64,000 nucleotides of DNA, taken from Alphaproteobacteria bacterium. GTDB taxonomy: Bacteria; Pseudomonadota; Alphaproteobacteria; CAAHEQ01; UBA3637. Positions within the stretch are counted from its first letter, which is position 1. Every line of letters starts with the position of its first letter. Under the pieces are notes generated by a model. The model was not told the DNA's origin. It made no database searches and was given only the letters and a program-made list of their open reading frames with translations. The stretch spans positions 9,522 to 73,521 of the forward strand of contig JAZQUH010000039.1 of assembly GCA_045631185.1 (NCBI GenBank), in the 5' to 3' direction. Shown in pieces: positions 3,695 through 43,448 of the stretch. The translations under genes were made by a program, and so were the position numbers.

Positions 3695-3784
3695 AGCTTG
3701 GTTCCTCCAAAAAAAATTAATAACAGGTCTATTTTAGTATTTTTTTTAAAGACTTTCAAGTTTTTTTTTGCTATAATATATTTT

Positions 3785-5407
3785 ATGAAGTTGTTGAGGA
3801 AGATTTTTTTGCTTTTAACTATCGTTTTTTGGGGAATTGGTGCTTGGGCGCAAAATTTTTCAGAGAGCGGTGTGGGTAAATGGGAAAAACTGCCTTTTGG
3901 CCAGGTGCGTTTGTTGTCATGTACGACAGGTATTCAAGACAGAAACATAATGGTCGGTGGATTGCAGGTAAAGATAAAAGATGGGTGGATATTACATAAA
4001 CCAGATTTAACCCCATTGTTTGAAGATGCAATGGTTGAATATCCGATACGTCCTAATCCTGTTCAAACAAAAGAATATACAGATGATGTATTTATTCCGA
4101 TTATTTATAACATAGATGGGAAAAAAGATTTTGTTTTTGGCGTTCATGGGAATTTAAAAGGTTGTTGGGATGATAATTGTTTGGATGTACCGATTCGTAT
4201 AGCTTTACCCTTGGATGAAAAAGAAAGCAAATATACATCCTATTGTGCCTATATTATGGAGCAAGTGAATTCGGTTCCTCGTCCTATTTCAAATGTATCT
4301 TATGGTAAATGGTTAAATGATTCGACGGCTCTATTAAGTTTTAAACTTCCAGATATAACTCAGGCCTTTTTGCAAAATGAAAATGGTTTTGATTTTAGAA
4401 TTTTAGAAACTAAGTTTTTAAAAGATGAGATTCAATTTAAAGTATCTTATCCGCAAAAATGGCAAAATAATACGATGCAGGATTGGGTCTTAATTACCAA
4501 TCAGGGTGTTTTTCGGGTGCCTGTTGTTTTAAGTTCAAAACCAATACCCCAAACACCAAAAGATAAACCTTGGGGAATGTTTGTTTTGAGTGGGCTTTTG
4601 TTGTTCATCTGTTCACCGTTTTTCATTTTATTCGGCACATCCTTTTTAAAAAATAAAAAACAATTGCGGCAACAATGTGTGCGTGCCATTATTGCATCAA
4701 GCATTTTAATTCCCATCTTTTGTTTTATGCCAAATATCAACGAAATGGATATCTTATTCCCTTGGGTTTGGATTGCGATGGGAATTACTTTAATATTTAT
4801 CCCCCGTTTTGTGTGGTGGACAGCGTTGTTGTTTGTTGTTTGGCCTAAACCGATTTTAAACGAGATGACAGAAAATTTTTCGTTATGGTATTTAATCCCA
4901 TGGTTGGTTATGTGGAATGTATTGCCGTTCGGATTGCTTTATAGATATGCTGATTTTTGGGGCAAAAAAGGCCGTTTCAGTTTAAAGCATGATTTCTTTT
5001 TGCATAACTTATTCTTTTTGTTGCCAACCATCTATTTGTTGTTCAGCGGTATTCATTCACATTTTATCAATGTGCCATATGAAAACGCCCCCAAAATGGA
5101 CAAGACGAGAATCAATGTTATTTGTGAAAAATCGGATTGCCAGAATTGGATGGCATTTTTACCAAGTGTTCGTTTCATCAATCCCAAAAGTAATTTTGGA
5201 AAAGAATTACAAAATTTATATAACACGGATAAAACAATCGTTGTTTTTGATGATAGTGGTATTGAGACCGTTTTGACGGATATAACCCCTAAAAAATTAG
5301 AAAAATACCTTATTGGTTTGCAAAATTATCGCGCTCAGTACAGGCCAGTTGATCCACCAATTCATTCTGGGGATGACCGGCATGACCTTTCACCCAATGC
5401 CATGTGA
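3785..5407 (+). CDS. Divergent DsbD/ScsB-like membrane thiol:disulfide protein
   Basis: Signal peptide (AWA-Q); N-terminal domain with [10 protein letters not shown] and GCWDDNC; multiple TM segments; C-terminal CEKSDC. Confidence 0.55.
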
Positions 5408-10973: not shown

Positions 10974-13900
10974 TCAGAATTTCCAATTTAATCCTGTTTG
11001 TGCCTTTGTACGGGCTTCAGAATCAATATAAGATAAGACAGAGCCATATAATTCTAAATTATCCTTATTCGACCAGTTGAAACCAGCACGTGCTACAGCA
11101 CGGTTTTCTGAACGGTTTTCATCTTCTACATCAAACGTGCCTGCCATACCATTCATACCCAAACGTAATGTGTAAGGATCGGCAAATTCATGATAGAGCA
11201 TTAAACCAGCGTTTAAGTTTAATTTTCCATCTGTTAATTCGGTCTGTTTTGTTGCATAGAAACCAATACCGCTTTCTACTGACAACATATTTTGGTTTGG
11301 AATTGTTAAACTGAATTCTTTTGCATCTTCACGGCCTTTTTGTTGATAGCCAAGGACGTTGAATTCAAATGTTGGTTCTAAACTCCATCCGGCTAAGTGT
11401 AATGGATATCTGGCTTCGTTCATGATACCATAGACACGTTTTTCGATTTCACCTTCGTAAGAAAGTCCACCCAAGCCTGTACGGTCATATGATCCTTTGG
11501 CGTATCCTAATCGTGGTGAAGTAACCATATCCATTTTACCGACTTTATAACCAAAAGGAACAATCATCTGGTACATTGTATCCTGGCGACTATTACTGTC
11601 ATTATCGTCATCACTACTGATATCTGTAAAGGCGATACCCAAGCCAACAGATGTTGCGCCATCACGTTTGTTTACTAAACCATAGCGACTGGTGGAACCC
11701 ACATCGCCCTTGAATGCCATCGGGGAAACAGAACCCGAAATAGACATATGGGCATCTTTATTATGGAACAGATTGTTATTGATATCGTAATTTAATTCAC
11801 GCATCATTGTCAAATCTTCAAAATTGAAGCGAGACAAAACATCTTTTCCTGTCAGTTCTTTTAAACTATTATTTAAAGCAGATTCGCTTCCAAACGATTT
11901 CAGTTTGTTATAGAAATTTTCATTATTTTCTAAGGCATAGTTTTGACTTAAGAACCCTGCCAAAGAAGAGTTATCCATAACATCTGAAAATTCTTTCATC
12001 TTCATGATGACATCTGTTCCATTATCAGCCAAAGAGGCGTCGAACAAAGCAGATTCGGATTTCAATGTCAACTTGGATGTGTCGGGTGAAGAAATCATAC
12101 CTTTTTCGGTATAGACCTTATCAAACCCTTTGGTAACCGTATCCGAAGCAATGCCAGCTTCACCATAAATGGATGTTGTTCCTGTTGTTTTTGAACCAGA
12201 GGATAAGGTTAATTTTAAAGCAGAAGCATCAATGGTTGGGGCTATAAGTTCGCCAGCGTTATTAACGTTTGACAAACTGCCATTTGGTCCCAATTTAATG
12301 AAGTTGCCTTCCTCTTTTGAACCATCAACATTTGTTCCAGCTTCTACGCCATTTACTTTAATTGTTCCTGTATTCTTAATGTATGTTTCGCTTCCGTTAA
12401 TATAAATACCATAGGCATTCGCACCGTATGCACCTTCTTCGCCAACACTTACGAAAATGTTTCCTTCGTTAATGATGGAAGAGGTAGGACTGTCCAAATA
12501 AATACCATAGGCTTCGGCCAATTTATTTGAAGATGATACATCAATTGTTCCTGTGTTTTTAATCACATTGCGGAAATTGCTGCCTGCCATGATACCATAG
12601 GCATTACCACCGCTGGAAACAGTAATATTACGGCTGTTTTCTATATAGCTATCCCCATTTGTAATAATACCATATAAATTCTGATTAGAAGGTGCAGTAA
12701 GTCGAATTGTACCGGAATTTATAACTTTGTAACCTCTGCCGGCATGAATACCATAAGAAATTTCGCCAGTATTTACTGTACCTTGATCATAAGTTGATTC
12801 TAAATTTATAGTACCCTCGTTAAGCACAGTTTTGTTTGAAGATGAATCTTCTACATGTATACCTGTTGCAGTTATTCTTTTTTCATTCGTAATGGTTATT
12901 GTACCTGTATTTGTGATATCACTGTCGTCCAGAGAATAGATACCGGTTGCAGCATTTGTTAATTTACTGCTTAAGTTAATTGCGCCCGAATTAACAACAC
13001 TGGATAATGCTTTGCTTCCGTTGTTATATATACCAAAAAATGTTGTCCTTTCGGCAGTTTCAGAAGTATTTGACAGATTAATTTTTCCGCTATTTGTGGT
13101 TATTCCCTGGTCATTGTGGATACCGACCAAACCAGCATCAGTTGTTTGTGTTTGTAATGAAATGTCACCTGAGTTGGTTACGTTTAACATTGCCGTGCTG
13201 TCTGTTACCGTTGGATCTATTTCGGCCAATATACCATATCCATTCTCTTTGATATTTGTTAATGAAATACCCGAGCCATTTGTGGGATTACTAATGATTC
13301 CACTGCCCGAATTTGTAAAGGCATAAGTTCCTGTTTTTTGATCGGTTTTAAAATTGGAACCAAAAGCAGTGAGATAATTGTCAATTTTAATTGTTCCACT
13401 GTTTTCGGCCGTTCCGTTTATGGTATGTATACCAGCAGCAATCTTACCATCATATGTGGTTGAAATATCAATAACCCCTTTGTTTATGGAGTTTTTAAGT
13501 GGAAGTGTTCCGTCTTGTGCTGAATGGATACCTACTACATCATTTACATCCTTAATGGTTATTTTTCCGCCAGCACCATTGACGGCTTCTTTTGCGTGTA
13601 TACCAGTGGCTGTCCCCAGGTTTGCAGCGCCGGTTTGTTGAATTATGATATCCCCATTGTTAGATGCGGTAATATCCGATTGAATGGCAACATATTCACC
13701 GTCTGCTGATGAAGTCAGTGAAATCAAGTCATTTAATCTGCTGTGGGCCCCATTTTTACCGTATATTCCGGTCAATTTTGTGTCAGCATTTTTGCCGCTT
13801 AATTCAATTTTCCCTTGGGATACATCATTATTGGAATTGTATGAATTATTATTGGAATATAATCCATAAAATTCCTTGGTTGAAACAGGGGCTGTGCTTG

Positions 13901-16900
13901 CTTCTATAATCTTAATGTTACCAACAGCAGTTGAGTCTTCTCCGTGGGCGTTATAGACATCTGATTCAGAACGCATACCATACACATTTGCGGTACTACT
14001 GTCTTTAATAGAGATAGTTGCTGTTGCCCCTGAACCGTCACCAACTGATTGGGCGTTATAAGTACCATTGATGCCGACCACATTGCCTGTCATTTTTATA
14101 CCAACAGTATTATCAATTTCTAACATACCAACAGCATTACCACCATTTGTTGCATAAGCATTTACACCAGTAATACCAACAATTTCACCCTTCATGTTCC
14201 CCTCGGCCTTATTGGTCATATAAACACCCGCATTTGCCTCTGTTCCTTCCCCATTGGCTTTTGCGTTATAGGAGGTTACATCACCAAAACCGCCCAAACC
14301 ACGTAAGGAAAGCTCAGTCGTGCTGACAGAACCAGTAACTTCTGTGTCAAAATAAATACCACCTTGGGTCTTTTTGTTGATATTGTCTGCCAAAGCGTTT
14401 ATACCATTACCCAATGCATAAAGAATAAAATTGGATTTTCCTGATGTAGTGGTCGTATCAATTCTTTTATCAATCTCTTTTGTTGTATTGAGTGCGCCAT
14501 CTGTTAAATCAGTAGCCGCTATGGAAGAAGAGTATTGAACACATTTTCCGTTTAGTTTTTGATAGTTTTCGGCACAAGCAGAACATTTAGGACCTGTATA
14601 ACCTGGTGCACAAACTCCACATATACACTGTCCCGAAGTTGCGTCAAATGTGGGAGCCCCTGTACAGTTTGGGATCGCCATGCTAGCACAAGTAGGTGCT
14701 GTACAGCTTAATTTGTCGGCGGATAAGACATAATCCCCTTCACATTTGTTACATTGATGTAATGTATCCGTCCCACGTAAACAGGAGTCGCCTGTTTCGC
14801 AGTTTGCAACAGCCGTTGGATTACCTGTACAGGCAGGATCTGGTATACAGGTATTTGTTGTTGAATCCAGAGCATATCCAGGTTCACATGTCGTGCATGT
14901 ATATAATGTATCCGTCCCATGTAAACAGGTCGTTGGAGTTTTGCAGTTTGCAATAGTCGTTGGACTACCTGTACAGGCAGGATCTGGTATACAATTATTA
15001 TTGGTTCCAGGCTCAAAGCCTTCGTTACATGCTGTACATGTATAATAAATTGTTCCTGCTGAATTACAGGTTGTTGGGGCGTCACAGCCTGTATTATCTG
15101 TGTTTGTGCTGGTACATGCTATAGGTGTACAGTTATCTCCTTCATATCCAGCGTCACATGTATCGCATTTGTCATTTGTTTGTGTTTCGCAATTTGGAAT
15201 TTCTGCATAACATTTACCGTCGGCCCCTTCTGTATAACCAGTATCACATGTATCGCATTTGTCATTAGGTTGATGGGCGCAATTTGGAACTGTGGGATAA
15301 CATTTGTGGTCGTCTCCTTCAGTGTAATTAGGTGCGCAAGTTTCGCATTTAAAACCCATATAACCAATTGCACAAAGTCCACATATACACTGTCCCGAAG
15401 TTGCGTCAAATATGGGAGCCCCTGTACAGTTTACGATCGCCATACTAACACAAGCAGGTTCAGTACAGCTTAATTTGTCGGCGGATAAGACATAATCCCC
15501 TCTACATTTGTTACATTGATGTAATGTATCCGTCCCACGTAAACAGGAGTCGCCTGTTTCGCAGTTTGCAACAGCCGTTGGATTGCCTGTACAGGCAGGA
15601 TCTGGTATACAATTATTATTTGTTCCGAGCACAAATCCGGCGGTACATGCTGTACATGTATAATAAATTGTTCCTGCTGAATTACAGGTTGTTGGGGCAT
15701 CACAACCGGTATTATCTGTGTTTGTGCTGGGACATGTTACAGGTGTACATGCATTTGCTTGCAAATTCCAACCGTCTTCACAACTGTTACACTGGTCATT
15801 TATTTGTGTTTCGCAATTTGGAATTTCTGCATAACATTTACCGTCGGTCCCTAACTTATAACCTGTGTTACAACTTGTACAAGTGTAAAAAGAATTTTCT
15901 CCTGACTGACATGTATTATATGTGGCGCATCCTGTTAAAGATGAATTCGTTGTTGGACAGACTACCGTTTTACATCTTCCACCATCTACTTCCCATCCTG
16001 CTTTACATTGGGAACAGGTGTTGCCTGTTTGTTTTCCTGTTTCACAATTTGGAATTTCCAAATAACATTGATTGTTATACAAAGTGTAACCTGAGGCGCA
16101 ACCAGAACAAGTGCTATCATGTTGCGTTAGACAGTTATCAATCTTTTTATAACATTTTCCGTTTGAACCTAGTTGATGTGTACTTAAACACTCTGTACAA
16201 TTATAATAATAATTGCTTGCACCAGATTGACATCGATCATAATTGCTACATCCGTCGGTGGATGTGTTCAAAACGGGGCATGACGTAATGGTGCAGGTAT
16301 TATTTTCCAGTGTCCAACCCGCTTTACACTTAGGACATGTATCTGCGTTTTGTCCATCACAGTTTTGGATTTCACGATAACAGCGATTATTCTGTTTTAT
16401 ATAGTTTGTTTCGCAAGCATCGCATTGGTTGTCCTTTTGTATGGCACAATTGTCGATCTTCACTTTACAGCTTTTTCCATCTACGCTTGGTATATAACCA
16501 TTATTGCACGACAGACAAAGATCTTTTGGTTGATGAATGCAGTTGTTAATTTTGGGATAACACCCTCCATCTGTTCCTTCGTGATATCCTGTTGCACAAC
16601 TGCTACAATCTAATCCAGAAAAACCCTTTTGACAGGCTAGCACTTTATATTTTGTTATGCCAAATGCGGTACTTGACAAACATTTAGCCGCACGAGTCGG
16701 GCAACTGTCTAAAGTATAAGTGCTGTGATCATCATTAATGCTGGGGCTACTGTCGCTGCCGCCACCACCGCCGCCACCACCGGCAGCCAAAGCTATTCCA
16801 CCACCGATAAGGGCTGCAACCCCAACGCCGATGCCAACTTTTTGTGCGGTGGAAAGACCAGATGAACTTTCCACTCTCACTCCAGATAAAAGATTAGGGG

Positions 16901-17321
16901 CATTTGAATTTGCTATCCAAGGACTTTTTGTGGAGGACGGCACAGATTTGGGGACAACAGTTTTATTTTCTGATATGCGTGAATTATGGTTTTGAGCCCA
17001 AGAAGCGTAACCTTCATTAAAACTTACAATTTCTTCTTCTGAGATATTTTGAATACAATCATGTGTGATACTTGCGCCCAGTTTTCTGAGCATGGCATAA
17101 GCTGTATAATTTTTGCTTTGAATAGCATTACATAAGGAGGAATCGCCATTTTCGTCAGCTAAATCCAACTGATAGCCCATATCACTTATTTTTTGCAGAT
17201 TGGTTTCATTTCCCTTGCCTGCCCAATAATAAATTGCTTGCTGAGGTGTCATCATATCAGAAGCAAAACCTTGTGCAACAAAGCCCAATGTTGTCAGTGT
17301 AAATAGCAATTTTTTAAACAT
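10974..17321 (-). CDS. Giant BigA-like autotransporter with Cys-rich repeat region (2115 aa)
   Basis: Signal peptide; ankyrin-like N-domain; hydrophobic segment then poly-Gly; about 720 aa of CxxC repeats; N(S/T)GxI beta-helix repeats; beta-barrel ending GLNWKF. Confidence 0.88.
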   Translation of the reverse strand: MFKKLLFTLTTLGFVAQGFASDMMTPQQAIYYWAGKGNETNLQKISDMGYQLDLADENGDSSLCNAIQSKNYTAYAMLRKLGASITHDCIQNISEEEIVSFNEGYASWAQNHNSRISENKTVVPKSVPSSTKSPWIANSNAPNLLSGVRVESSSGLSTAQKVGIGVGVAALIGGGIALAAGGGGGGGGSDSSPSINDDHSTYTLDSCPTRAAKCLSSTAFGITKYKVLACQKGFSGLDCSSCATGYHEGTDGGCYPKINNCIHQPKDLCLSCNNGYIPSVDGKSCKVKIDNCAIQKDNQCDACETNYIKQNNRCYREIQNCDGQNADTCPKCKAGWTLENNTCTITSCPVLNTSTDGCSNYDRCQSGASNYYYNCTECLSTHQLGSNGKCYKKIDNCLTQHDSTCSGCASGYTLYNNQCYLEIPNCETGKQTGNTCSQCKAGWEVDGGRCKTVVCPTTNSSLTGCATYNTCQSGENSFYTCTSCNTGYKLGTDGKCYAEIPNCETQINDQCNSCEDGWNLQANACTPVTCPSTNTDNTGCDAPTTCNSAGTIYYTCTACTAGFVLGTNNNCIPDPACTGNPTAVANCETGDSCLRGTDTLHQCNKCRGDYVLSADKLSCTEPACVSMAIVNCTGAPIFDATSGQCICGLCAIGYMGFKCETCAPNYTEGDDHKCYPTVPNCAHQPNDKCDTCDTGYTEGADGKCYAEIPNCETQTNDKCDTCDAGYEGDNCTPIACTSTNTDNTGCDAPTTCNSAGTIYYTCTACNEGFEPGTNNNCIPDPACTGSPTTIANCKTPTTCLHGTDTLYTCTTCEPGYALDSTTNTCIPDPACTGNPTAVANCETGDSCLRGTDTLHQCNKCEGDYVLSADKLSCTAPTCASMAIPNCTGAPTFDATSGQCICGVCAPGYTGPKCSACAENYQKLNGKCVQYSSSIAATDLTDGALNTTKEIDKRIDTTTTSGKSNFILYALGNGINALADNINKKTQGGIYFDTEVTGSVSTTELSLRGLGGFGDVTSYNAKANGEGTEANAGVYMTNKAEGNMKGEIVGITGVNAYATNGGNAVGMLEIDNTVGIKMTGNVVGINGTYNAQSVGDGSGATATISIKDSSTANVYGMRSESDVYNAHGEDSTAVGNIKIIEASTAPVSTKEFYGLYSNNNSYNSNNDVSQGKIELSGKNADTKLTGIYGKNGAHSRLNDLISLTSSADGEYVAIQSDITASNNGDIIIQQTGAANLGTATGIHAKEAVNGAGGKITIKDVNDVVGIHSAQDGTLPLKNSINKGVIDISTTYDGKIAAGIHTINGTAENSGTIKIDNYLTAFGSNFKTDQKTGTYAFTNSGSGIISNPTNGSGISLTNIKENGYGILAEIDPTVTDSTAMLNVTNSGDISLQTQTTDAGLVGIHNDQGITTNSGKINLSNTSETAERTTFFGIYNNGSKALSSVVNSGAINLSSKLTNAATGIYSLDDSDITNTGTITITNEKRITATGIHVEDSSSNKTVLNEGTINLESTYDQGTVNTGEISYGIHAGRGYKVINSGTIRLTAPSNQNLYGIITNGDSYIENSRNITVSSGGNAYGIMAGSNFRNVIKNTGTIDVSSSNKLAEAYGIYLDSPTSSIINEGNIFVSVGEEGAYGANAYGIYINGSETYIKNTGTIKVNGVEAGTNVDGSKEEGNFIKLGPNGSLSNVNNAGELIAPTIDASALKLTLSSGSKTTGTTSIYGEAGIASDTVTKGFDKVYTEKGMISSPDTSKLTLKSESALFDASLADNGTDVIMKMKEFSDVMDNSSLAGFLSQNYALENNENFYNKLKSFGSESALNNSLKELTGKDVLSRFNFEDLTMMRELNYDINNNLFHNKDAHMSISGSVSPMAFKGDVGSTSRYGLVNKRDGATSVGLGIAFTDISSDDDNDSNSRQDTMYQMIVPFGYKVGKMDMVTSPRLGYAKGSYDRTGLGGLSYEGEIEKRVYGIMNEARYPLHLAGWSLEPTFEFNVLGYQQKGREDAKEFSLTIPNQNMLSVESGIGFYATKQTELTDGKLNLNAGLMLYHEFADPYTLRLGMNGMAGTFDVEDENRSENRAVARAGFNWSNKDNLELYGSVLSYIDSEARTKAQTGLNWKF
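14615..15740 (-). repeat. Near-identical intragenic duplications in the Cys-rich region
   Basis: About 14615-14849 matches 15377-15611 (offset 762); about 14968-15120 matches 15586-15738 (offset 618). Confidence 0.9.
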
Positions 17322-17474
17322 GTTTCCCCCTTGGGTTACAATACGACTTACTACCCTTATACATAAAAAAAATATAAAAATCAACACTTTTTTTTGCTTT
17401 TTTATTATTCTTTATATGGAAAATCCAAAATAATAGTTTTTTTGTTTAAAAAGATAGCTAAATAAAAAAATCTA

Positions 17475-17503
17475 TTGACAAATAAAAATGAAAGATATAT
17501 AAT
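17475..17503 (+). promoter_or_regulatory. Sigma70 promoter
   Basis: TTGACA (17475-80)-17 bp-TATAAT (17498-503). Confidence 0.9.
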
Positions 17504-17511
17504 CCGTCCCT

Positions 17512-17592
17512 ATGACAAAAAGTTTAAATTTGTTTGCTTTTAATTACGCCTATTTGTGGTTGTTTAGATCACAAAGGGTCTTTTTGTCGTAA
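17512..17592 (+). CDS. Attenuator leader peptide MTKSLNLFAFNYAYLWLFRSQRVFLS
   Basis: ATG 8 nt after the -10 box; F/Y/W at every second codon from 8 to 18; overlaps alternative hairpins. Confidence 0.85.
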   Translation: MTKSLNLFAFNYAYLWLFRSQRVFLS

Positions 17593-17651
17593 CTGAAATG
17601 TAAAATTTAAATGGCAATAAAGGCTCTTTCTTACGAAAGGGCGTTTTTTTT
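17549..17651 (+). promoter_or_regulatory. Ribosome-mediated transcription attenuator (1:2, 2:3 and 3:4 hairpins)
   Basis: 1:2 = tttgtggtt/gatcacaaa; 2:3 = aaagggtctttttgtcgt/atggcaataaaggctcttt; 3:4 terminator = gctctttc-ttac-gaaagggc followed by T8. Confidence 0.85.
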
Positions 17652-17675
17652 ATTTTAAAGAAAGGAAAAATCACA

Positions 17676-19328
17676 ATGTCGGACGATATAAAAATTTTAA
17701 AGGCTTTGCCTGTTTTGCAAAAAACAAGCAACACTCAAACGCTTTCGGATTATTTTAAAGAAACGGTTGCGCCTTTGGGTGAAATTCAGGATAATCCCGA
17801 GAAAAAAATACTGACAGATGCGATTTTTCAACAAACAGAACGTCTTTATGGGGTGGATGTTGCGAAGGAAGTATGTGAACAAGTTAATCGTTTTCCTGTG
17901 GTTGAAACAGGCACCCATTTGGCCCTTTTACGTGATTATGATACACCCAAAAAGGATGATTTGCGTTCCCGTTTAAATCAAAATGTTTTGATTTCATCGG
18001 CTTTGATGCGTCATATGGGGCAAAAATATCATGTGGGTGTTTATGGCAGTAATGTTAATTTGAATCACCCCTGTGGTGGTGGCTTTTTCCAATTGGGTGA
18101 TGATATTTTTCCTGTTGCACAATTGCGTCAAATAAATCAGAATTGTTTGTATGACGCCCCAAGTATAGATAAAAATTATTTTAACGAAGCTTTACCTTTG
18201 GTGGCCAAATTAAATATGTTAAATAGTGTTTTGACCAATGAAGCCATAGACAAAACACAATCTCCACATAAAGAAATGTTGCAAAAAACAAAAAAAGTGA
18301 TAACCAGATTATTGGAACCAGTCAGTCAAGGAAAGATGGCTTATTCAATTGTACAAAAACAATATCAGACCTTGAATGAGAATAATCAAAATGCCATTAA
18401 AAAGGCTATGTTGCTTTTGTCGGCCGATGCTTATAAAAAATATGGTTATACTTTTTCGGATGTGGATAAACAATATCTCCAATTACAGGAAGTTTTTAAT
18501 CGTCAGGATTTAAAATTACCCGATCAGGTTGCCTTAATTCAATCAAATACAATCAATAAAGTCTTACAGGGATCCGATATTAAACACATATCTGTGGATG
18601 CGGTAGAAGTGGCACGTCAATTTTTAATTTCATCATTGGAAAACAAAAACAGTTTATGGTATAATATTTTTAACAATTCGGAAAAGTTTAACAAAATGCA
18701 TCAATCTTTTATTGGTATCAGGGGCAGTTGGAAAGCAAATGAATCTGTCTTTGATTATGTTGCACGGGACAAAGGATTTTCAAAAACAAAAACTTTGCCG
18801 GTTGAAGCTCTTGATCATAAACCTGAAACACTTTTACCTTTGTTAAAAGACAGAAAAATTATACCATCCAGTGCGTTATTGATTTTGCTTTTCCAAAGCG
18901 CAAGTGTTATGGCGCATGGTGGTTTTTTCCAAACGACTTATGCCGATAAAATAAAAAAACGGTTTGTGAATTATTTAAGTGATATCGGTGAAGTCAAACG
19001 TTCCGAGCAACTTCAAAAATTGCCGGTGGATATGGCATTATTGTCTTTGGCGGTCCTTAAGGATAAAACCGGACAACCGATGAAACTGTCCGATATTTCA
19101 CGCATACAAGAGGATAAAAGAAAACAAGTGATAAATGAAATTCCGACTTATCCGTCCCATCAAGCCGTTTCAAATGCTTTACCTGTTTTGGGAAAATATT
19201 TGGATGCCACAGCCCCAGGCTATGTTGAATCAGAGGCCAGATATGCGGATGTTCCTCAATTGATATCTCAGCATAAAAATACATCAAATATATTTTCTCA
19301 AACACAAAAATTGGAGAGATCTGCATGA
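17676..19328 (+). CDS. Hypothetical 550-aa protein, possibly distantly BshC/ligase-like
   Basis: AAGGA RBS; PVVETGTH and HGGFFQTTY motifs; family assignment is speculative. Confidence 0.8.
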   Translation: MSDDIKILKALPVLQKTSNTQTLSDYFKETVAPLGEIQDNPEKKILTDAIFQQTERLYGVDVAKEVCEQVNRFPVVETGTHLALLRDYDTPKKDDLRSRLNQNVLISSALMRHMGQKYHVGVYGSNVNLNHPCGGGFFQLGDDIFPVAQLRQINQNCLYDAPSIDKNYFNEALPLVAKLNMLNSVLTNEAIDKTQSPHKEMLQKTKKVITRLLEPVSQGKMAYSIVQKQYQTLNENNQNAIKKAMLLLSADAYKKYGYTFSDVDKQYLQLQEVFNRQDLKLPDQVALIQSNTINKVLQGSDIKHISVDAVEVARQFLISSLENKNSLWYNIFNNSEKFNKMHQSFIGIRGSWKANESVFDYVARDKGFSKTKTLPVEALDHKPETLLPLLKDRKIIPSSALLILLFQSASVMAHGGFFQTTYADKIKKRFVNYLSDIGEVKRSEQLQKLPVDMALLSLAVLKDKTGQPMKLSDISRIQEDKRKQVINEIPTYPSHQAVSNALPVLGKYLDATAPGYVESEARYADVPQLISQHKNTSNIFSQTQKLERSA

Positions 19329-19939
19329 TTTTAAAACGTATTTTATCGACACATATCAAATCAAATCTGATATATGCTACAAAAAACAATGCTTTTTATA
19401 AGGATATGTATTCATCCTTTGGCTTAAAAGAAGCCTTGGTGCATCCCAAATTATATGACTGTCTGATTCGGTTGGAACCATTATTGGCATCCAAATCATT
19501 GATATTGGTTATTTATGATGCGTTCAGGCCGTTGGCTATTCAAAAATTTATGTATGAAACAGCTCCCGATTATTTAAAGCCTTATATCGCACCACCGCCT
19601 AAACCCGATTCCAAACGTGGGTTTCATCCCCGTGGTGTAGCCATAGATTGTTATTTGACAGATACGCAGGGCAATATACTTTCTTTTCCGACAGAACCGG
19701 ATGCTTTTTATCCCGGATATGAAAAAGACAATAATTATCCGAAGTATTTGAAAAAATGCCATCGTGATTACAATGGGTCGGATATAAATGAAGAACAAAA
19801 AAATAATCGTGCCCTTTTGGAATCAATGATGGCATCTGTTGGATTGGAAGGATTGCCCCATGAATGGTGGCATTTTAACCTGCCCAACGCATGGGAATAT
19901 CCGTTGATTGAATCTTTGGAAAAAGTGGATATTGAATAA
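19325..19939 (+). CDS. M15 family (VanX/DdpX-like) D-Ala-D-Ala dipeptidase
   Basis: IYDAFRP, GFHPRGVAID, EWWHF; ATGA overlap with the upstream gene. Confidence 0.9.
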   Translation: MILKRILSTHIKSNLIYATKNNAFYKDMYSSFGLKEALVHPKLYDCLIRLEPLLASKSLILVIYDAFRPLAIQKFMYETAPDYLKPYIAPPPKPDSKRGFHPRGVAIDCYLTDTQGNILSFPTEPDAFYPGYEKDNNYPKYLKKCHRDYNGSDINEEQKNNRALLESMMASVGLEGLPHEWWHFNLPNAWEYPLIESLEKVDIE

Positions 19940-19968
19940 CTATTGATTATAGATTATTCTCTTTTTAT

Positions 19969-20571
19969 TTATTTAAGATTTGCATTAATTTCATTTATCA
20001 TTAATACAATATTTGTGGTAAATATTTTGACAGCCATTGAAACCAAAATCAAACCGAAGAACTTTTGAAGTGTATACAAAAAACTAGGCCCGATAATTTT
20101 GTTGATTTTTTTTAGCCCTTTTAGGATAGCAAAGATAATTATTGCATTTAATAAACAGGCGATTAAAATATTGATGCTTTGATATTGGGCCCGCAAACTG
20201 ATTAAGGTGGTAAAAGTTCCGGCGCCGATTAAAAGCGGGAAAACAACAGGCATGAAAGTGGTATCCTGTGAGGCACTTTCTTTTGATTTGAAAAAATTCA
20301 TATCTAATATCATCCCCAGACCAATTAAAAAAATCACAAAAGAACCGGCTACGGCAAAGGATGATACAGTAACGCCCAACAAACTTAAAAAGGTGTCACC
20401 GATATAGAAAAAGGAAATTAAAATAAATAATGACATCAATGCGGCTTTTAGTGGATATATAACTTTTCCTTCTTTTTGTAAATTGATAAAAATCGGAATG
20501 TTTCCCAAAGCATTAATGACCGCAAACAAAACAATAAAAGCATTAAAAATTTCGGAATATGAAATGTGCAT
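19969..20571 (-). CDS. MarC family membrane protein
   Basis: LFAVINALGNIPIF; PVVFPLLIGAG; about six TM segments. Confidence 0.92.
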   Translation of the reverse strand: MHISYSEIFNAFIVLFAVINALGNIPIFINLQKEGKVIYPLKAALMSLFILISFFYIGDTFLSLLGVTVSSFAVAGSFVIFLIGLGMILDMNFFKSKESASQDTTFMPVVFPLLIGAGTFTTLISLRAQYQSINILIACLLNAIIIFAILKGLKKINKIIGPSFLYTLQKFFGLILVSMAVKIFTTNIVLMINEINANLK

Positions 20572-20634
20572 AATAAATCTCCTTATAACAAGGGCGGATT
20601 CTAAAATAATTTGATTATTTTTTCAAGTTGTTTT

Positions 20635-22002
20635 TTAATTGTTTCGTTGATTTTTCTGTCTGAAAATCAAATTATGACAAAGATTATCCACAGATGGGAT
20701 TGTTTTTCGTTCTTGTTGTATAATTTTATCCGATTGACCGTGGGCGATAGGATTTCTTTTTAAAAATAATTCTTCAGCATTTTCAACTTCTTTTTTTGAA
20801 AGAAGTTTTTGCTGCATTAAAAATTTAATTTTTTCCTTCGTTGATTTAGATTGTAACTCTTTCGGTAACAATTCGTTGATTGTGGCATCTAATTTGGCAC
20901 TTCTGCGTATAATTTCATAAGAATTATATAATCCTGAAATTTCTTGCAGTTTGAATAAATCAGGAAAAGTTTTGGTATATTCGGATAAAAATTTTCTGTC
21001 AATAAAATGTGTAACAAAATCCATATATAAATCGGCGATTAAAACGTTTGCTTTTTCACCGAAATGAACGGTATTTCTGTCATGTGCTAATTCATTACGG
21101 GCGTTTTCACAGTGAATGTAACCGGTGGCATTGGAAATATAATTAAACTTTTTAGCAAACAAAAAAATGGCATTTTTATTTTGTTTTAACCGTTGTTGTG
21201 CCTGTTGTTTTGTTGGGGCAATATCTTGGTGATGTTCTTGAATTAAAACATCCGTTAAAAAACGACGCGTATTATCGGCCAAATACATAATCAAAGGCGC
21301 ATCACAACCTTTAATGGCTTCTGTTTCTGCGTTTTCATAGGTTCGTGCCATCCAAAATTTTTGCCATTGTTGTTGTGTGTAAGGTGGGGGTGTTTGATTA
21401 TAAAAATCACAGAGCATATTTTCCACTTCCGTCAATCTCATTAATAAATCAGGATTTTTTTTCAATCTGTCCATATTCGGTTGTGCATCTGCAAAATTCG
21501 CCTTGATTAAATAAGGGTGTTTTAGGGAAGTTGCCAAAAATTCACGGGTTGGAACATTTTCTATTAAGGTTAAGGCTTCGTTATTTTTAAAATAAGAAGA
21601 TTGTTTATCTTTGCATATATTGATTAAAAAATCTCTTTTGTGAAAATCGTCCAAACTCATGGCATCGGGCATGATTACTTGAAAAATTTCGTTTTGGTAA
21701 TCTTGTTCTATCAATCTTTGAGCTTCATCATTTAGTTGTTGAAACTGATACCGACAGTATAGCCCCAATGATTGTAAACGTAATGCATATTGTAAAATAT
21801 TTTTTAATCTTGGGTAAAAATTCTTTATTCTGAATGGTACTTTTGTATAAGGGGTCGCCAGTTTTTCAAATTCTTCGGAAGTTAGATTATGGCTTACGGA
21901 AAGGTTTTTATCTTTATCCAAATAAAAACACATATTCTCTGGGGCACCAGAAAATTCAATAACAGGACTTATATGGGATTTAATTTCTTCTTTGCTAATC
22001 AT
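20635..22002 (-). CDS. Protein with two HEPN-like RNxxAH motifs
   Basis: ARNELAHD (21082-21099) and KRNPIAHG (20740-20757), each preceded by a helical segment typical of HEPN domains; start chosen at MISKEE. Confidence 0.7.
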   Translation of the reverse strand: MISKEEIKSHISPVIEFSGAPENMCFYLDKDKNLSVSHNLTSEEFEKLATPYTKVPFRIKNFYPRLKNILQYALRLQSLGLYCRYQFQQLNDEAQRLIEQDYQNEIFQVIMPDAMSLDDFHKRDFLINICKDKQSSYFKNNEALTLIENVPTREFLATSLKHPYLIKANFADAQPNMDRLKKNPDLLMRLTEVENMLCDFYNQTPPPYTQQQWQKFWMARTYENAETEAIKGCDAPLIMYLADNTRRFLTDVLIQEHHQDIAPTKQQAQQRLKQNKNAIFLFAKKFNYISNATGYIHCENARNELAHDRNTVHFGEKANVLIADLYMDFVTHFIDRKFLSEYTKTFPDLFKLQEISGLYNSYEIIRRSAKLDATINELLPKELQSKSTKEKIKFLMQQKLLSKKEVENAEELFLKRNPIAHGQSDKIIQQERKTIPSVDNLCHNLIFRQKNQRNN

Positions 22003-22147
22003 TGTAAAATATAACCAAAATTCAATCAATTATACCATAAAACTACTAATTTTTCAATCTCAATATTCAATACACAAATGTTTTGGATTTTGATTGACTT
22101 TTCTTATTCAACAAATTATGATTATTTTAACAATATCGGAGGCTAAT

Positions 22148-23230
22148 ATGTCTGTATCAAAAATTGTTTTAACCGGGGGACCTTGTGCCGGAAAAACGAC
22201 GGCTCTCAGCATAATCGAACAAAAACTAACCGAAAAAGGATATAAAGTTATCGTTGTTTCGGAATCGGCAACCGAAATGATGCAGTCTGGATTTTCATCA
22301 TCAGATTTAGGGGTTAAAGATTTTGAAAACTATATCATAGATTGGCAAATCGCCAAAGAAAATATCGCCTTTCAGGCCGCCGATCATTTTCAAAAAACAA
22401 TCATCTTACTGGATCGGGGCATTCCTGATTGTATGGCGTATATGAATAAAAATGATTATATAGACGCTTTAAAACGTCATGGTTTATCGTTACAAGAAAC
22501 ACTCAATCGTTATGATGCTGTTTTTCATTTGGTAACAACAGCCGATGGTGCGGAAAAATTTTATACATGTGCTAATAACACTGTCAGAAAAGAAAAAGAT
22601 TTGGAATCTGCCCGCAAATCAGATAAAGCAACACAAAATGCTTACATTGGACATCCGCATTTACGTGTCATTGACAATGAAACAGATTTTTTCGGCAAAA
22701 TCACGAAATTATGTTCGGAAATTTTTAATGCCTTGGGTGAACCCGTTCCTTTGGAAATTGAACGAAAATTTTTAATACAAAAACCGACAGATGAAAAACT
22801 GAAACAATTAGGGGCCGTTGAACAAAAAATTACCCAAGCATATCTAACTCCAAATGGCAAAACAGAACGCAGAATCCGGCAACGCGGAACTGATTCCGAT
22901 TTTACATATTACTATACGGAAAAAACGACTTTATCCGACTTAAAACGAATTGAACGCGAACGCAAGATTACAAAAAATGAATATCTGAATTTGCTGACAG
23001 AAGCGAAAAAAATCTTGCATAAAAATCGTTGGTGTTTTTTGCAAAACGGCTTATATTTTGAATTGGATACATTTGATGATGCTCCTGATAAAGCATTATT
23101 GGAAATAGAATTGAATCAGGAAAACCAACAAATAAAGCTGCCCGATGGGTGCCAAATAATTAAAGAAGTCACAAATGATTCGAATTATCGAAACACAGCC
23201 ATTGCACAAAATGGTTTTCCCAAAGGTTAA
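22148..23230 (+). CDS. P-loop nucleotide-kinase-like (AAA_28/TTD14) domain fused to a CYTH domain
   Basis: VLTGGPCAGKTT, LDRG; C-terminal EIERKFL, RIRQR, ELD, LLEIEL; GGAGG RBS. Confidence 0.9.
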   Translation: MSVSKIVLTGGPCAGKTTALSIIEQKLTEKGYKVIVVSESATEMMQSGFSSSDLGVKDFENYIIDWQIAKENIAFQAADHFQKTIILLDRGIPDCMAYMNKNDYIDALKRHGLSLQETLNRYDAVFHLVTTADGAEKFYTCANNTVRKEKDLESARKSDKATQNAYIGHPHLRVIDNETDFFGKITKLCSEIFNALGEPVPLEIERKFLIQKPTDEKLKQLGAVEQKITQAYLTPNGKTERRIRQRGTDSDFTYYYTEKTTLSDLKRIERERKITKNEYLNLLTEAKKILHKNRWCFLQNGLYFELDTFDDAPDKALLEIELNQENQQIKLPDGCQIIKEVTNDSNYRNTAIAQNGFPKG

Positions 23231-23311
23231 AATGTTTTTTATTAGAAAAGCATCAGAAAAAACAGAGAATTTAAACTTTGTTTTGTAAGACGTAGGGAAG
23301 TACAACTAAAA

Positions 23312-23342
23312 AAAACAGATCGCTTTCGGGCGACCTGTTTTA
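23312..23342. terminator. Probable terminator downstream of tRNA-Ser
   Basis: aaaacagatcgc...gcgacctgtttt imperfect hairpin with an A-tract. Confidence 0.6.
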
Positions 23343-23343
23343 T

Positions 23344-23432
23344 TGGCGGAGCGTACAGGATTTGAACCTGTGCATCCCTTTAACAGGATGACGGATTAGC
23401 AATCCGCTGCATTACCACTCTGCCAACGCTCC
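23344..23432 (-). tRNA. tRNA-Ser (GCT)
   Basis: GGAGCGTTGGCAGAGTGG...GCGGA-TTGCTAA-TCCGT, long variable arm, ...GCCA. Confidence 0.95.
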
Positions 23433-26118: not shown

Positions 26119-26874
26119 TTATCGGCTTCGCCAAATGGGATTTAACGGTCTGGGTCGGCGTAATGTATTTGGGTGACGTTGTTTTAATTGATGATTTAAA
26201 ATTGCCTGATTGATGATTAGGGCGTTAAAATTTCTCATATCCTGAATCAAAGCCCCATATTGTTTAAATGGTATAATACATTTATTACCATATCTTAAAA
26301 ACCATTGGTTAAAGGCGCTATACACACGATCCGATGGGGCATTTTGGGCGGCCTTTTTTAATGATTTTTGTGCTTTATCATAAAAATCATGATCCTCATA
26401 TAAAACTGGTGATGTACCGCGTTTTAAAATTTCATATCCTTCATTGGGTAAAGCGTTATATTGATTTAAAAAACAAGCCTCGGATAACATGTGGTTGGAT
26501 ACATCATGGGCATTCAATGCCACTTTGTTTGCCAACAAATAAATCAAATTATCATTTTGTTCAACGGGTTGTATTTTACCGGATTTAATAATTTCTTGGG
26601 CTTGTATCATAATTTTTTTATGGTCTTCTTGTGCTAACTTTCTATCCAAATGTTTAATACAAAAATCGTGTAAAGAAGATTCAAAAAAGTCATGAGAAAG
26701 GCTGTCGGCTTTTTCCTTTGGAATATCTCGTCCCTCTTGTAAAATATGGGTTAAAAAGGAAGCCATATTATCATCTTTAAATTTGTTAAAAGTTCCACGA
26801 TAGCCCAACCAAACAGCGGGTAAAACTTCTTTTTTGATATCACAGTCTTCGGGCAATGTTGTTATTTGTGTCAT
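26119..26874 (-). CDS. Hypothetical protein with Arg-rich C-terminus
   Basis: 251-aa ORF with a TTGACA-17-TATAAT promoter at 26901-26929. Confidence 0.8.
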   Translation of the reverse strand: MTQITTLPEDCDIKKEVLPAVWLGYRGTFNKFKDDNMASFLTHILQEGRDIPKEKADSLSHDFFESSLHDFCIKHLDRKLAQEDHKKIMIQAQEIIKSGKIQPVEQNDNLIYLLANKVALNAHDVSNHMLSEACFLNQYNALPNEGYEILKRGTSPVLYEDHDFYDKAQKSLKKAAQNAPSDRVYSAFNQWFLRYGNKCIIPFKQYGALIQDMRNFNALIINQAILNHQLKQRHPNTLRRPRPLNPIWRSR

Positions 26875-29475: not shown

Positions 29476-30213
29476 ATGTTTAAACGTTTGAAAAATTGGC
29501 TTTTTAATCGTCCGCCGGAAGATCATATGGTGGCATCTTTTGCTTGGGTTATCGGAACTTTTGCGGCAATTGGTTCAGCGGTGGCTTTTCCGGCGATAGC
29601 ATCTGTTGCCGTTGGTGTTGCCAGCTTTACATACCTTATGGCTTTGGCCGAAGGTGCTTACGGAATTGGTGGAATGATTGGTAATTTTTGCAATTGGGTA
29701 TATAGGAAAATTTTTAAATCAAAAAAACAGCCTGTAAATAATCAAAATCAGCCTTCTAAATCAGATAAGCAGCCTCAGGCCGAACAGGAAAAAGACAACG
29801 GTCGGGAACAACCCCAGCCGGAAAAAGAAAACGGCAAAGGTAAAGAACAGCCACAGCCGGGACAGGAAAAAGGTAAAGAAGAACCTCAGGCAGAACAGAA
29901 AAACGGCAAAGGAAAAGAACAACCCCAGCTGGGACAAGATGAACCTCAGGAACAACCTCAGGCCGAACCTGTTGAGCCAAAACAACAGCCGATAACTTTA
30001 AATTCAAAAGAATTTTTGATTTTAATTCGCCAAATGCAGATTTTGATGCAATTGCTCCAACAAACCAGAATGGAATTGGAGGCTTTGCGTCAAAAGAATA
30101 AAACTTTGACTTTGGAAAATAAAAATTCAAAAGATTTAGATCGACCTATTTCCAGACGAAATCGTCCTTTAAATCGTAATTATCTTCCAAATTCACGATT
30201 TGTGCGTCATTAA
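29476..30213 (+). CDS. Hypothetical membrane-anchored protein with Q/E/P-rich repeats and a coiled coil
   Basis: N-terminal hydrophobic segments; repeated KNGKGKEQPQ/QPQAE; AAGGAG RBS and TTGACA..TATAAT promoter. Confidence 0.8.
   Translation: MFKRLKNWLFNRPPEDHMVASFAWVIGTFAAIGSAVAFPAIASVAVGVASFTYLMALAEGAYGIGGMIGNFCNWVYRKIFKSKKQPVNNQNQPSKSDKQPQAEQEKDNGREQPQPEKENGKGKEQPQPGQEKGKEEPQAEQKNGKGKEQPQLGQDEPQEQPQAEPVEPKQQPITLNSKEFLILIRQMQILMQLLQQTRMELEALRQKNKTLTLENKNSKDLDRPISRRNRPLNRNYLPNSRFVRH
29768..29970 (+). repeat. Imperfect intragenic tandem repeats
   Basis: Recurrent cctcaggccgaac, aaacggcaaagg and gaacaaccccagc units. Confidence 0.7.
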
Positions 30214-43312: not shown

Positions 43313-43448
43313 TTTGCTTCCTTTTGGATCATTATACACAAAATAAAACTGTTTGACCAGCAAAAAATGCGATAAAACAAAAAAATATAATCGGTCTTGT
43401 AAAAGACATAAAAATACGCTATAATTAGGCTTTAATTCGGATGAAAAA

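Follow-up and report, generated by a model that had tools for sequence, protein, structure and literature searches.

The initial annotation of the 64-kb window (the whole stretch of DNA analysed) singled out a compact protein with two HEPN-type motifs and no CRISPR array next to it. This raises the question of whether a single chain outside a CRISPR system can hold both halves of a HEPN ribonuclease site, and which role such a protein would play. We refer to the protein as P0001 and to the one related locus for which DNA context was available (21 kb) as L001.

The gene and its two Rx4H motifs

The coding sequence, its predicted promoter and the two motifs are placed as follows:

20635..22002, minus strand: coding sequence of the putative tandem-HEPN protein P0001, 455 aa, supported by translation, dN/dS and family
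22029..22057, minus strand: predicted sigma-70 promoter, TTGAAA, 17-nt spacer and TG-extended TATAAT
21082..21099, minus strand: HEPN motif 1, R302-N-E-L-A-H307, at the end of predicted helix 292–307, translation checked
20740..20757, minus strand: HEPN motif 2, R416-N-P-I-A-H421, with R416 in predicted helix 403–420 and H421 as first loop residue, translation checked

The open reading frame spans 20638–22002, followed by a stop codon at 20635–20637, and translation from the ATG at 22002 yields the 455 aa protein. Its MISKEE start is common to the close homologues and the query, and the alternative TTG further upstream, at 22029, shares positions with the -10 box. Comparison with the L001 copy gave a dN/dS of 0.155 at a dS of 0.285, indicating purifying selection; the gene is real and under selection. 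Its GC content is 0.32 compared with 0.389 for the window. The predicted promoter matches the consensus at 11 of 12 positions and carries the TG extension in addition. Since our scan returned 10 promoter-like sites against 9.8 in shuffled sequences, the consensus match alone is weak evidence for a promoter. Support comes instead from conservation, as the DNA block shared with L001 starts exactly at the -35 hexamer.

The two RNxxAH motifs had been reported about 115 aa apart, and both were found: ARNELAHD comprises residues 301–308 and KRNPIAHG residues 415–422, with 114 aa between the two arginines. RNELAH (302–307) and RNPIAH (416–421) are the only Rx4H motifs of P0001. HEPN domains are defined by a conserved Rx4-6H with a polar residue (N/D/H) after the arginine (PMC3710099), a pattern that both motifs show. 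Two or more Rx4H motifs occurred in 2169 of 20000 shuffles of P0001 and are thus not rare by themselves, while none of the 20000 contained two RNxxAH motifs. Because paired Rx4H motifs are common in shuffles, conservation is a stronger test than the motif count. We used an alignment of 23 sequences which are 17–93% identical to the query and, with three close copies set aside, share only 17–36% identity. R302 and H307 are present in all 23; H421 is found in 22/22 and R416 in 21/22 (one Cys), one row being without this region. The residue after the arginine is N or D in 23/23 for motif 1 and N in 20/22 for motif 2. Absence of the motifs from homologues had been named beforehand as a result that would speak against the proposal; arginine and histidine are kept in 21/22 to 23/23 sequences.

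Predicted fold and HEPN assignment

Three parts can be distinguished along the chain:

21391..22002, minus strand: N-terminal region, residues 1–204, with 1–37 predicted to be disordered and 38–204 a predicted alpha/beta domain of no known family
20968..21390, minus strand: first HEPN-like unit, residues about 205–345, boundaries approximate, the start may lie near residue 184
20638..20967, minus strand: second HEPN-like unit, residues about 346–455, from predicted helices and sub-threshold profile matches

The AlphaFold2 model of the full-length protein reached a pLDDT of 81.8 and a pTM of 0.79, with pLDDT below 50 for residues 1–37 and mostly above 85 beyond. Helices are predicted at 210–261, 265–285, 292–307 and 318–330 in unit 1 and at 352–378, 388–397, 403–420 and 438–454 in unit 2, with a short linker (roughly residues 331–351) joining the two. 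Each motif ends the third helix of its unit and is followed by a loop and the last helix, which is the position where HEPN domains carry Rx4-6H. The stretches described earlier as HEPN-like helices preceding the motifs, FLFAKKFNYIS (280–290) and IKFLMQQKLLSKKE (392–405), fall in the helix and loop just before the motif-bearing helix in the model. R246, L249 and L253 of unit 1 are also conserved in the alignment. When the C-terminal 251 aa were modelled alone, pLDDT rose to 88.3 at a pTM of 0.79. The models suggest that both units form a single compact body, which is ordered with confidence. Units 1 and 2 align with their motifs in register (hhalign P 0.003–0.006 compared with 0.09–0.75 for controls), and from their sequences the two units may have arisen by internal duplication.

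Within the family, conservation is lowest in the N-terminal region, with 15–17% mean pairwise identity compared with 28% for HEPN1. This region gave no match in Pfam, NCBIfam, PADLOC or ESM Atlas; the earlier description of an unrecognised N-terminus applies to about 200 aa. We propose that it may be a sensor or regulatory domain. The basic tail RQKNQRNN, also pointed out in the initial annotation, is present at residues 448–455 but is not a family feature: the last 20 residues hold between 0 and 7 K+R across the 23 rows.

The initial annotation had called for a HEPN HMM search. Such matches do appear, but below all curated cut-offs: the 23 family members matched 27 Pfam families at E≤1, of which seven belong to the HEPN clan, namely RiboL-PSP and DUF4145 (6 members each), Cthe2314, HepT-like, MAE_28990 and Swt1 (3 each) and NTase_sub_bind (1). 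At E≤0.1 at least one HEPN-clan match was obtained for 10 of 20 relatives, and both halves were covered. Sub-threshold matches to the unit 1 half came from three relatives (Cthe2314 twice, NTase_sub_bind once), those to the unit 2 half were RiboL-PSP, HepT-like, DUF4145 and MAE_28990. The best HEPN match, from a relative, scored 20.8 bits against a curated cut-off of 28.4 (E 3.8e-4); the query itself gave E 0.88 on HEPN_Swt1 and received no assignment from Pfam, NCBIfam or PADLOC (0 PADLOC families). HepT_toxin of NCBIfam matched 3 of the 23 members, again sub-threshold. PADLOC returned weak matches to CARF_HEPN in two members, CARF_m10--CARF_HEPN in one and RTasHEPN in one, together with four unrelated models, and no defence family at a convincing level for the query or the 23 members. 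A PHROGs search with the 23 members was uninformative.

Structure comparison pointed in the same direction. The C-terminal model was matched by Foldseek to 1wwp_A (probability 0.69) and to 6m6w_G, a HepT (0.69), and 6m6u_H (0.51). These were the only matches above 0.12 and all are HEPN structures, with target-normalised TM scores of 0.49–0.55 but non-significant E-values of 1.5–3.4. None of the three Foldseek searches gave an E-value below 0.3, and for the full-length model none was below 0.8 in PDB or below 0.3 in BFVD. Searching PDB by sequence with the query, the family profile and each unit yielded chance-level matches only; uS8 (E 1.4), a hemolysin (E about 3) and MazF (E 0.73) were discarded as such. 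The best ESM Atlas score of 0.83 lies in the noise range, and we treat an RnlA-type HEPN cluster, scoring 0.80, as no more than a lead. Taken with the motifs, we consider it likely that P0001 has a HEPN fold.

Genomic surroundings and family

The L001 copy shares 91.5% nucleotide identity with the P0001 gene and is located at a different genomic site. The shared block consists of promoter and gene: it begins at the -35 box, about 56 nt ahead of the gene, and ends about 20 nt beyond the stop codon, with unrelated flanks on both sides. The neighbouring genes encode a MarC transporter and an AAA_28-CYTH protein in the window; at L001 they encode a giant surface protein with nine Ephrin_rec_like stretches, which adjoins the gene, and an OMP barrel. 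Since L001 lacks the divergent AAA_28-CYTH gene, we rejected a functional link to it. At neither locus do the neighbours include an MNT, antitoxin-like or defence gene. Neither locus has the look of a defence island, the surroundings being surface proteins and housekeeping genes.

A low-GC stretch at about 17.4–23.3 kb abuts a tRNA-Ser gene. A genomic island at this tRNA is unproven, with neither an integrase nor a second copy of the tRNA end found.

No CRISPR-like array was detected in the 17–27 kb region, in the whole 64-kb window or in the 21 kb of L001, which extends the earlier statement on the adjacent intergenic regions. An Rfam scan of 17–27 kb at E≤1 gave a tRNA as the sole match above gathering score, and RF03085 was not among the matches. 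We rejected the CRISPR or guide-RNA idea for both loci on the basis of the missing arrays and, for 17–27 kb, the missing Rfam ncRNAs. The picture of a stand-alone gene holds in the window and at L001, where neither array nor partner gene was seen and, in the scanned region, no Rfam ncRNA.

The family is very small. It comprises 21 cluster representatives among 1.84 billion proteins; a word-indexed protein search returned 2 matches, the close copies alone, and 5 with the family profile. No homologue was found by tblastn on plasmids (4 of the 23 family members as queries) or on phages (3 of the 23). Low GC, the non-syntenic site at L001 and the very small family give the gene an accessory character.

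Proposed mechanism, alternatives and related systems

Tentatively, we assign the gene product to a rare family without a name, made up of putative ribonucleases with two HEPN units in tandem on one chain, probably for defence or toxicity. In the proposed mechanism the chain would consist of a variable N-terminal domain (about 200 aa) followed by two HEPN-like helical units, each retaining an R-[ND]-x-x-A-H motif. The units would pack on each other intramolecularly, like HEPN1 and HEPN2 of Cas13, so that both Rx4H motifs line one composite cleft. Metal-independent cleavage with formation of a 2',3'-cyclic phosphate is established HEPN chemistry, and the cleft would accordingly cut single-stranded RNA without metal and leave such ends. 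The N-terminal domain would keep the enzyme off until a trigger is sensed. As the gene has its own strong predicted promoter and lacks an array, an ncRNA and a partner gene, the protein may be self-contained. It counts against this reading that a constitutive-looking promoter driving a potentially toxic putative RNase without antitoxin would demand an autoinhibition step. We predict that P0001 is probably an active RNase; the intramolecular composite site is predicted with moderate confidence. The likeliest role would be protection of the cell from phages or other invaders, by innate defence or abortive infection, although we hold a defence function to be possible rather than probable.

The same motifs could be assembled differently, each unit pairing with its counterpart in a second chain. 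Such a homodimer or larger assembly, of the type known from RnlA, ApeA or HepT, would have either two active sites or a single shared one. Most HEPN RNases are homodimers (10.64898/2026.03.20.713152; PMC12165695) and the linker between the units is short, which lends this arrangement some, albeit low, probability. The pTM of 0.79 for the two-unit fragment suggests instead a fixed arrangement within the chain, and two complete motifs per chain are kept family-wide, as an intramolecular pair would need. It is also conceivable, but unlikely, that the RNase is delivered to a eukaryotic host cell or a rival bacterium, e.g. by a type IV secretion system; export would explain why no immunity or antitoxin gene adjoins it. 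In the window, a VirD4/TraG-type coupling protein is encoded 18 kb from the gene, along with a giant autotransporter and a Sel1-repeat protein, and the giant Ephrin_rec_like protein adjoins the gene at L001. A solitary, low-GC, non-syntenic gene, 37 disordered N-terminal residues and a basic tail fit an effector, and secreted RNase toxins as well as a secreted HEPN-containing effector are known (PMC3710099). Yet no Sec signal peptide was recognised (sequence judged by eye), the basic tail is unconserved in the family, no other secretion-system gene lies beside the gene at either locus, and an active RNase made inside the cell would still require self-protection. Housekeeping RNA processing or decay in this lineage, comparable to Las1 in rRNA processing, is improbable. 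Purifying selection, a constitutive-type predicted promoter, a chromosomal position among housekeeping genes and the lack of toxin-antitoxin or defence partners agree with it. Housekeeping enzymes are normally widespread and syntenic, however, and here we find 21 cluster representatives only, a non-syntenic site between 91.5% identical copies, a GC content below the surroundings and an N-terminal domain that varies across the family.

An RNA partner would place P0001 with AbiF or Cas13an, the protein being checked or guided by an ncRNA encoded elsewhere or inside the gene. In AbiF, which has been proposed as the ancestor of Cas13, a cis-encoded ncRNA neutralises the HEPN toxin (PMC12737573). 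Cas13an proteins have 429–577 aa and two HEPN domains, two of the listed source organisms belong to alphaproteobacteria-type genera, and their second motif (RNxIAHGG-like) resembles RNPIAHGQ by eye (PMC12165695). We nevertheless judge such a partnership very improbable: RF03085 and all other Rfam families except tRNA were absent from 17–27 kb, no arrays were found, and none of the 23 members matched an Abi_2 or Cas13 profile. The stretches that the two loci share outside the gene, about 56 nt before it and 20 nt after it, leave no room for a cis ncRNA. The motifs moreover lie 114 aa apart in the C-terminal half, compared with roughly at least 200 residues in the Cas13an sequences inspected from PMC12165695. 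The faintest probability goes to a protein that is no enzyme at all, but a helical scaffold or nucleotide-binding protein whose motifs are there for binding or for folding, as happens in HEPN domains without catalytic activity. In its favour, none of the catalytic HEPN families was matched significantly, and some HEPN domains bind ligands only (PMC3710099). Non-catalytic HEPN domains have typically lost Rx4-6H, though (PMC3710099), and here the arginine, the polar residue and the histidine are kept in both units of nearly all members.

Regarding P0001 as a single-chain tandem-HEPN protein, we compared it with known systems. It resembles the type VI CRISPR effectors Cas13 and Cas13an in having two HEPN units with RNxxAH-type Rx4H motifs in one chain, the HEPN assignment being sub-threshold, and its 455 aa fall within the Cas13an range given in PMC12165695. 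Unlike Cas13, it lacks a CRISPR array in the 64-kb window and the 21 kb of L001, none of the 23 members matches a Cas13 model of NCBIfam or Pfam, and no Cas13 chain is among the Foldseek matches listed. Its HEPN units are adjacent in the C-terminal half with no long insert between them, and its N-terminal 200 aa form a domain outside any known family. In function, ApeA comes closest as an analogue, with an N-terminal sensor and a HEPN RNase encoded by one gene. Both are encoded by a single gene without partner, with an N-terminal domain that lacks a known fold (the one of ApeA senses the trigger) and a C-terminal RNxxxH-type HEPN (10.64898/2026.03.20.713152). ApeA differs in having one HEPN domain, a homodimeric state and about 600 aa; P0001 matches neither the PADLOC model for ApeA nor any other. 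HepT of the type VII toxin-antitoxin system HepT/MntA is the best structural and profile neighbour of unit 2 (6m6w_G, TM 0.55; Pfam HepT-like and NCBIfam HepT_toxin in 3/23 members each, sub-threshold), but HepT is a single domain of about 130 aa beside an MNT antitoxin, whereas P0001 has 455 aa, two units and no MNT gene. With AbiF/AbiD, a type III toxin-antitoxin whose upstream ncRNA is RF03085, it would share the character of a defence-linked HEPN RNase, AbiF being proposed as root of the Cas13 lineage (PMC12737573). AbiF differs in being a symmetric dimer with a single HEPN domain (PMC12737573), and Abi_2 was matched by 0 of 23 members with no RF03085 in 17–27 kb. A parallel to the 'tandem HEPN' of type IX retrons was rejected; these retrons are irrelevant here because their tandem is a KH module.

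The closest parallels in architecture may be the 'intramolecular HEPN dimer' clusters of the AlphaFold database. Table S2 of PMC12165695 lists twelve, ten of them not CRISPR-linked, and two of these non-CRISPR clusters are bacterial (Bacillus, 509 aa; Clostridium, 467 aa). P0001 shares with the non-CRISPR dimers the lack of an array and two predicted HEPN domains per chain, but none of the twelve clusters resembled it, as compared by eye alone. All are uncharacterised, so there is no function to borrow. A bolder interpretation, and a quite unlikely one, is that in the P0001 family the Cas13-style intramolecular HEPN dimer was invented independently and without an array, giving a compact, self-contained RNase of 455 aa whose variable N-domain would recognise a nucleic acid or protein trigger. 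It would then mark either a second route from HEPN duplication to a switchable single-chain RNase or the first case of a host-associated alphaproteobacterium delivering a tandem-HEPN RNase into another cell.

Cas13 has a single-chain HEPN pair as its catalytic core, and where such pairs come from is under active study. One study has traced them to duplicated defence HEPN genes and lists a few array-less dimers, all of them unstudied (PMC12165695). Array-less intramolecular HEPN dimers are thus already published, and the P0001 family would be new among those of PMC12165695, from which it is set apart by eye. It offers a tractable case, a small, conserved, stand-alone family with two intact motifs, a confident model and no RNA or protein partner. 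As just another HEPN toxin, P0001 would add little beyond one new family in the HEPN clan and in the defence or toxin catalogues. If exported, it would represent a new class of RNase effector, and if active, a compact switchable RNase. The family could reveal how such an enzyme is held off and subsequently switched on.

A rare family with two conserved RNxxAH motifs

The initial annotation had pointed to two RNxxAH motifs in a compact protein. Both were located by translation of the gene, here called the HEPN gene:

20635–22002, minus strand: HEPN gene, ATG at 22002, stop codon at 20635–20637, 455 aa (the query, P0001)
21082–21099, minus strand: RNELAH of motif 1 (ARNELAHD, residues 301–308)
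20740–20757, minus strand: RNPIAH of motif 2 (KRNPIAHG, residues 415–422)

No further Rx4H motif is present in the query. Shuffling of the query yields at least two Rx4H motifs in about 11% of cases (2169/20000); two RNxxAH motifs were found in none of 20000 shuffles. A longer open reading frame starting from TTG at 22029 is unlikely, because this codon falls within the predicted -10 box and MISKEE is also where the close homologues begin.

When 1.84 billion cluster representatives were scanned in full with HMMER, 21 proteins reached E≤1e-3; ten also reached E≤1e-10 and four E≤1e-30. Their lengths of 169–465 aa leave no longer, fused forms. A word-indexed search gave two close copies of the query with 93% and 89% identity, and one related locus could be retrieved with its DNA (L001, 21 kb of an uncultured alphaproteobacterium), whose copy shows 92% protein identity. 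None of the 10 family clusters looked up bears a name, all 10 deriving from metagenome-type sources, and searches on tandem, dual or intramolecular HEPN proteins in the literature library used here returned no description of the family.

We aligned 23 family sequences, which outside the three close copies are 17–36% identical to the query. R302 and H307 are invariant (23/23), H421 is kept in 22/22 and R416 in 21/22, one protein having Cys at this position and one row lacking the region. The residue following R is N or D in all 23 sequences for motif 1 and N in 20/22 for motif 2, resulting in the consensus R-[ND]-x-L-A-H-P and R-N-x-x-A-H-G, respectively. R246, L249 and L253 of TRRFL, a stretch within the long helix of helical unit 1, are nearly invariant as well. 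The two motifs are the most conserved feature of the family. Comparison of the query with the L001 copy gave a dN/dS of 0.155 at a dS of 0.285, with all three protein parts under purifying selection: the HEPN gene is a real gene under selection. In a maximum likelihood tree of the 21 longer rows the family splits into two well-supported groups, the query belonging to the smaller one together with the relatives P0004, P0005, P0010 and P0016.

Probable assignment of the helical units to the HEPN superfamily

The AlphaFold2 model of the full-length protein, built on 23 sequences (pLDDT 81.8, pTM 0.79), shows two similar helical units in the C-terminal half:

Residues 210–261, 265–285, 292–307 and 318–330: helices of unit 1
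Residues 336–345: short linker helix between the units
Residues 352–378, 388–397, 403–420 and 438–454: helices of unit 2

The third helix of each unit is closed by its motif, with the His as helix end or first loop residue. The same position is assigned to Rx4-6H, with a polar N, D or H after the R, in the passages of the HEPN superfamily reference survey drawn on here (PMC3710099). Profile-profile comparison of unit 1 and unit 2 placed the motifs in register (P 0.003–0.006), compared with P 0.42–0.75 for the N-terminal domain against either unit and P 0.09–0.10 for reversed units.

Searched alone against Pfam, the query gave HEPN_Swt1 at E 0.88 and no other HEPN match. Among the 27 Pfam families matched at E≤1 by the 23 members, seven belong to the HEPN clan: RiboL-PSP and DUF4145 (6 members each), Cthe2314, HepT-like, MAE_28990 and Swt1 (3 each) and NTase_sub_bind (1). 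The same passages (PMC3710099) place DUF4145, DUF86 and NTase_sub_bind in the clan and identify MAE_28990 and Cthe_2314 as HEPN; for RiboL-PSP and Swt1 membership was taken from the Pfam names. At E≤0.1, 10/20 relatives have at least one HEPN-clan match and the other 10 have none. Unit 1 was matched by Cthe2314 in two relatives and by NTase_sub_bind in one, all remaining matches falling in unit 2, and every HEPN-clan match stayed below the curated cut-offs (best 20.8 vs 28.4 bits). NCBIfam HepT_toxin was matched by 3/23 members and the generic CARF_HEPN and RT-associated HEPN models of PADLOC by four.

Fold searches with the full-length model gave no match below E 0.8 in PDB or below E 0.3 in BFVD. 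Residues 205–455 modelled separately (pLDDT 88.3, pTM 0.79) gave no significant E-value either; among the matches listed, only three exceeded a probability of 0.12, all of them HEPN structures: 1wwp_A (0.69), found among the HEPN-T structures in the survey's listing (PMC3710099), and the HepT toxins 6m6w_G (0.69) and 6m6u_H (0.51), with target-normalised TM of 0.49–0.55. These lines of evidence, each weak by itself, converge, and we consider it quite probable that both units are HEPN domains. The two annotated motifs are confirmed, and the initial reading of the protein as a self-sufficient single-chain RNase is supported in part, by conserved motifs at the HEPN position; profile and fold matches remained weak and sub-threshold.

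In the N-terminal half, residues 1–37 are predicted to be disordered, and residues 38–204 form a confidently predicted alpha/beta domain without a match in any family or fold search. This half is the least conserved part, with a mean pairwise identity of 15–17%, compared with 28% in unit 1 and 19.5% in unit 2 (133 pairs of 17 full-length rows); for most of the distant relatives the alignment starts only at about residue 136–200.

Genomic setting of the HEPN gene

The window and L001 have 1439 nt in common at 91.5% identity (window 22058–20621, L001 9945–11383), and nothing else around matches. This block is a single gene with its promoter: its 5' end lies exactly at the predicted promoter (TTGAAA, 17-nt spacer, TG-TATAAT; 11/12 consensus positions) and its 3' end about 20 nt past the stop codon. 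With a predicted 5' leader of about 20 nt, neither a cis-encoded RNA nor a second gene fits in. The GC content of the HEPN gene is lower than that of the window (0.32 vs 0.389). The hexamer TTGAAA occurs at or near both block ends in both genomes, which is probably due to chance in AT-rich DNA; both copies also score as -35 boxes.

Surroundings of the gene at the two loci:

Window 10974–17387, minus strand: giant autotransporter, 2137 aa, C-terminal beta-domain, long Cys-rich repeats
Window ~17400–23340: low-GC stretch, ~6 kb, GC 0.335 vs 0.389 for the window
Window, downstream: MarC-family transporter
Window 22094–23230, plus strand, upstream: AAA_28 P-loop NTPase–CYTH fusion, divergent, 91 nt between start codons
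L001 2288–9793, plus strand, upstream: giant protein, 2501 aa, nine Ephrin_rec_like stretches
L001, downstream: outer-membrane barrel, then housekeeping genes

The AAA_28-CYTH protein is probably not a partner, since it is absent from L001. MNT genes, small antitoxin-like ORFs, cas genes and recognised defence genes are absent from both loci. In line with the initial annotation, which saw no array in the adjacent intergenic regions, no CRISPR-like array was detected anywhere within the 64 kb of the window or the 21 kb of L001. A permissive Rfam scan of window 17–27 kb found a tRNA as sole match above gathering score. Searches by tblastn with four of the 23 members (P0001, P0015, P0018 and P0022) detected no homologue among 72,556 plasmid records, and searches with P0001, P0015 and P0009 detected none among 50,697 phage records.

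The low-GC stretch, which begins at the 3' end of a tRNA-Ser(GCT) gene (23344–23432, minus strand), looks like an island. It holds five genes, for an unknown 550-aa protein, a D-Ala-D-Ala dipeptidase, MarC, the HEPN protein and AAA_28-CYTH; an integrase and a duplicate of the tRNA end are both missing.

At both loci a giant surface-protein gene lies within 4 kb of the HEPN gene, in different order and orientation, and the C-terminal parts of the two proteins are about 55% identical. The share of orphan proteins is high for an otherwise housekeeping region. Sizeable ORFs (251–594 aa) without Pfam match lie at 17676–19328 (+), 26119–26874 (-), 925–1962 (-), 3623–5407 (+) and 42167–43471 (-), the first two also without NCBIfam or PADLOC match. 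ORF 29476–30213 contains in-frame tandem repeats of 33–39 nt units (29776–29958, +) and encodes a low-complexity, Gln/Pro/Glu/Lys/Gly-rich protein without family match. A VirD4/TraG-type type IV secretion coupling protein (765 aa, 39856–42153, -) is encoded among housekeeping genes, flanked by ORFs without Pfam match (42167–43471, 39186–39863, 38740–39186), and is the only secretion-system gene recognised in the window.

Predicted activity and role

We infer activity, geometry and role as follows. The protein would be a single-chain tandem-HEPN RNase in which units 1 and 2 form an intramolecular pseudo-dimer, R and H of both lining one cleft. Cleavage would be metal-independent and leave a 2',3'-cyclic phosphate end, established HEPN chemistry according to the survey passages used (PMC3710099). 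The main mechanistic rival is pairing of the HEPN units between chains. The pTM obtained for residues 205–455 suggests that the units are fixed relative to each other and is silent on the contacting faces. In the single-chain reading, activity may be gated by the N-terminal domain; by analogy, a variable N-terminal module before a conserved nuclease recalls the way in which single-protein defence systems, e.g. ApeA, usually arrange sensor and effector.

Cas13 is defined by a pair of HEPN domains within a single chain, and its subtype Cas13an measures 429–577 aa (PMC12165695). The same paper, in its section 3 and Tables S2 and S3, lists twelve AlphaFold-database clusters of uncharacterised proteins whose HEPN dimer is intramolecular, and only two of these clusters adjoin arrays, so that a compact array-less single-chain HEPN pair is already in print. 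Compared by eye, these clusters bear no obvious likeness to the query. According to a review, AbiF is a dimer of single-HEPN chains, is neutralised by an ncRNA encoded in cis and is the proposed root of the Cas13 lineage (PMC12737573); unlike AbiF, the query has neither an Abi_2 domain nor such an ncRNA.

For the biological role, the chief competing reading is that of an exported effector or toxin. The coupling protein, a Sel1 protein and the giant eukaryote-like surface proteins of these genomes lend it some colour, but nothing links their genes to the HEPN gene, and the basic tail remarked on in the initial annotation, though present in the query, is not conserved in the family. The HEPN gene is a rare, self-contained accessory gene that is mobile on the scale of a single gene, and we therefore favour a role in conflict, innate anti-phage defence first. 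With its clear fold and motifs the protein is tractable, and it represents a new, very small HEPN-type family with tandem architecture.
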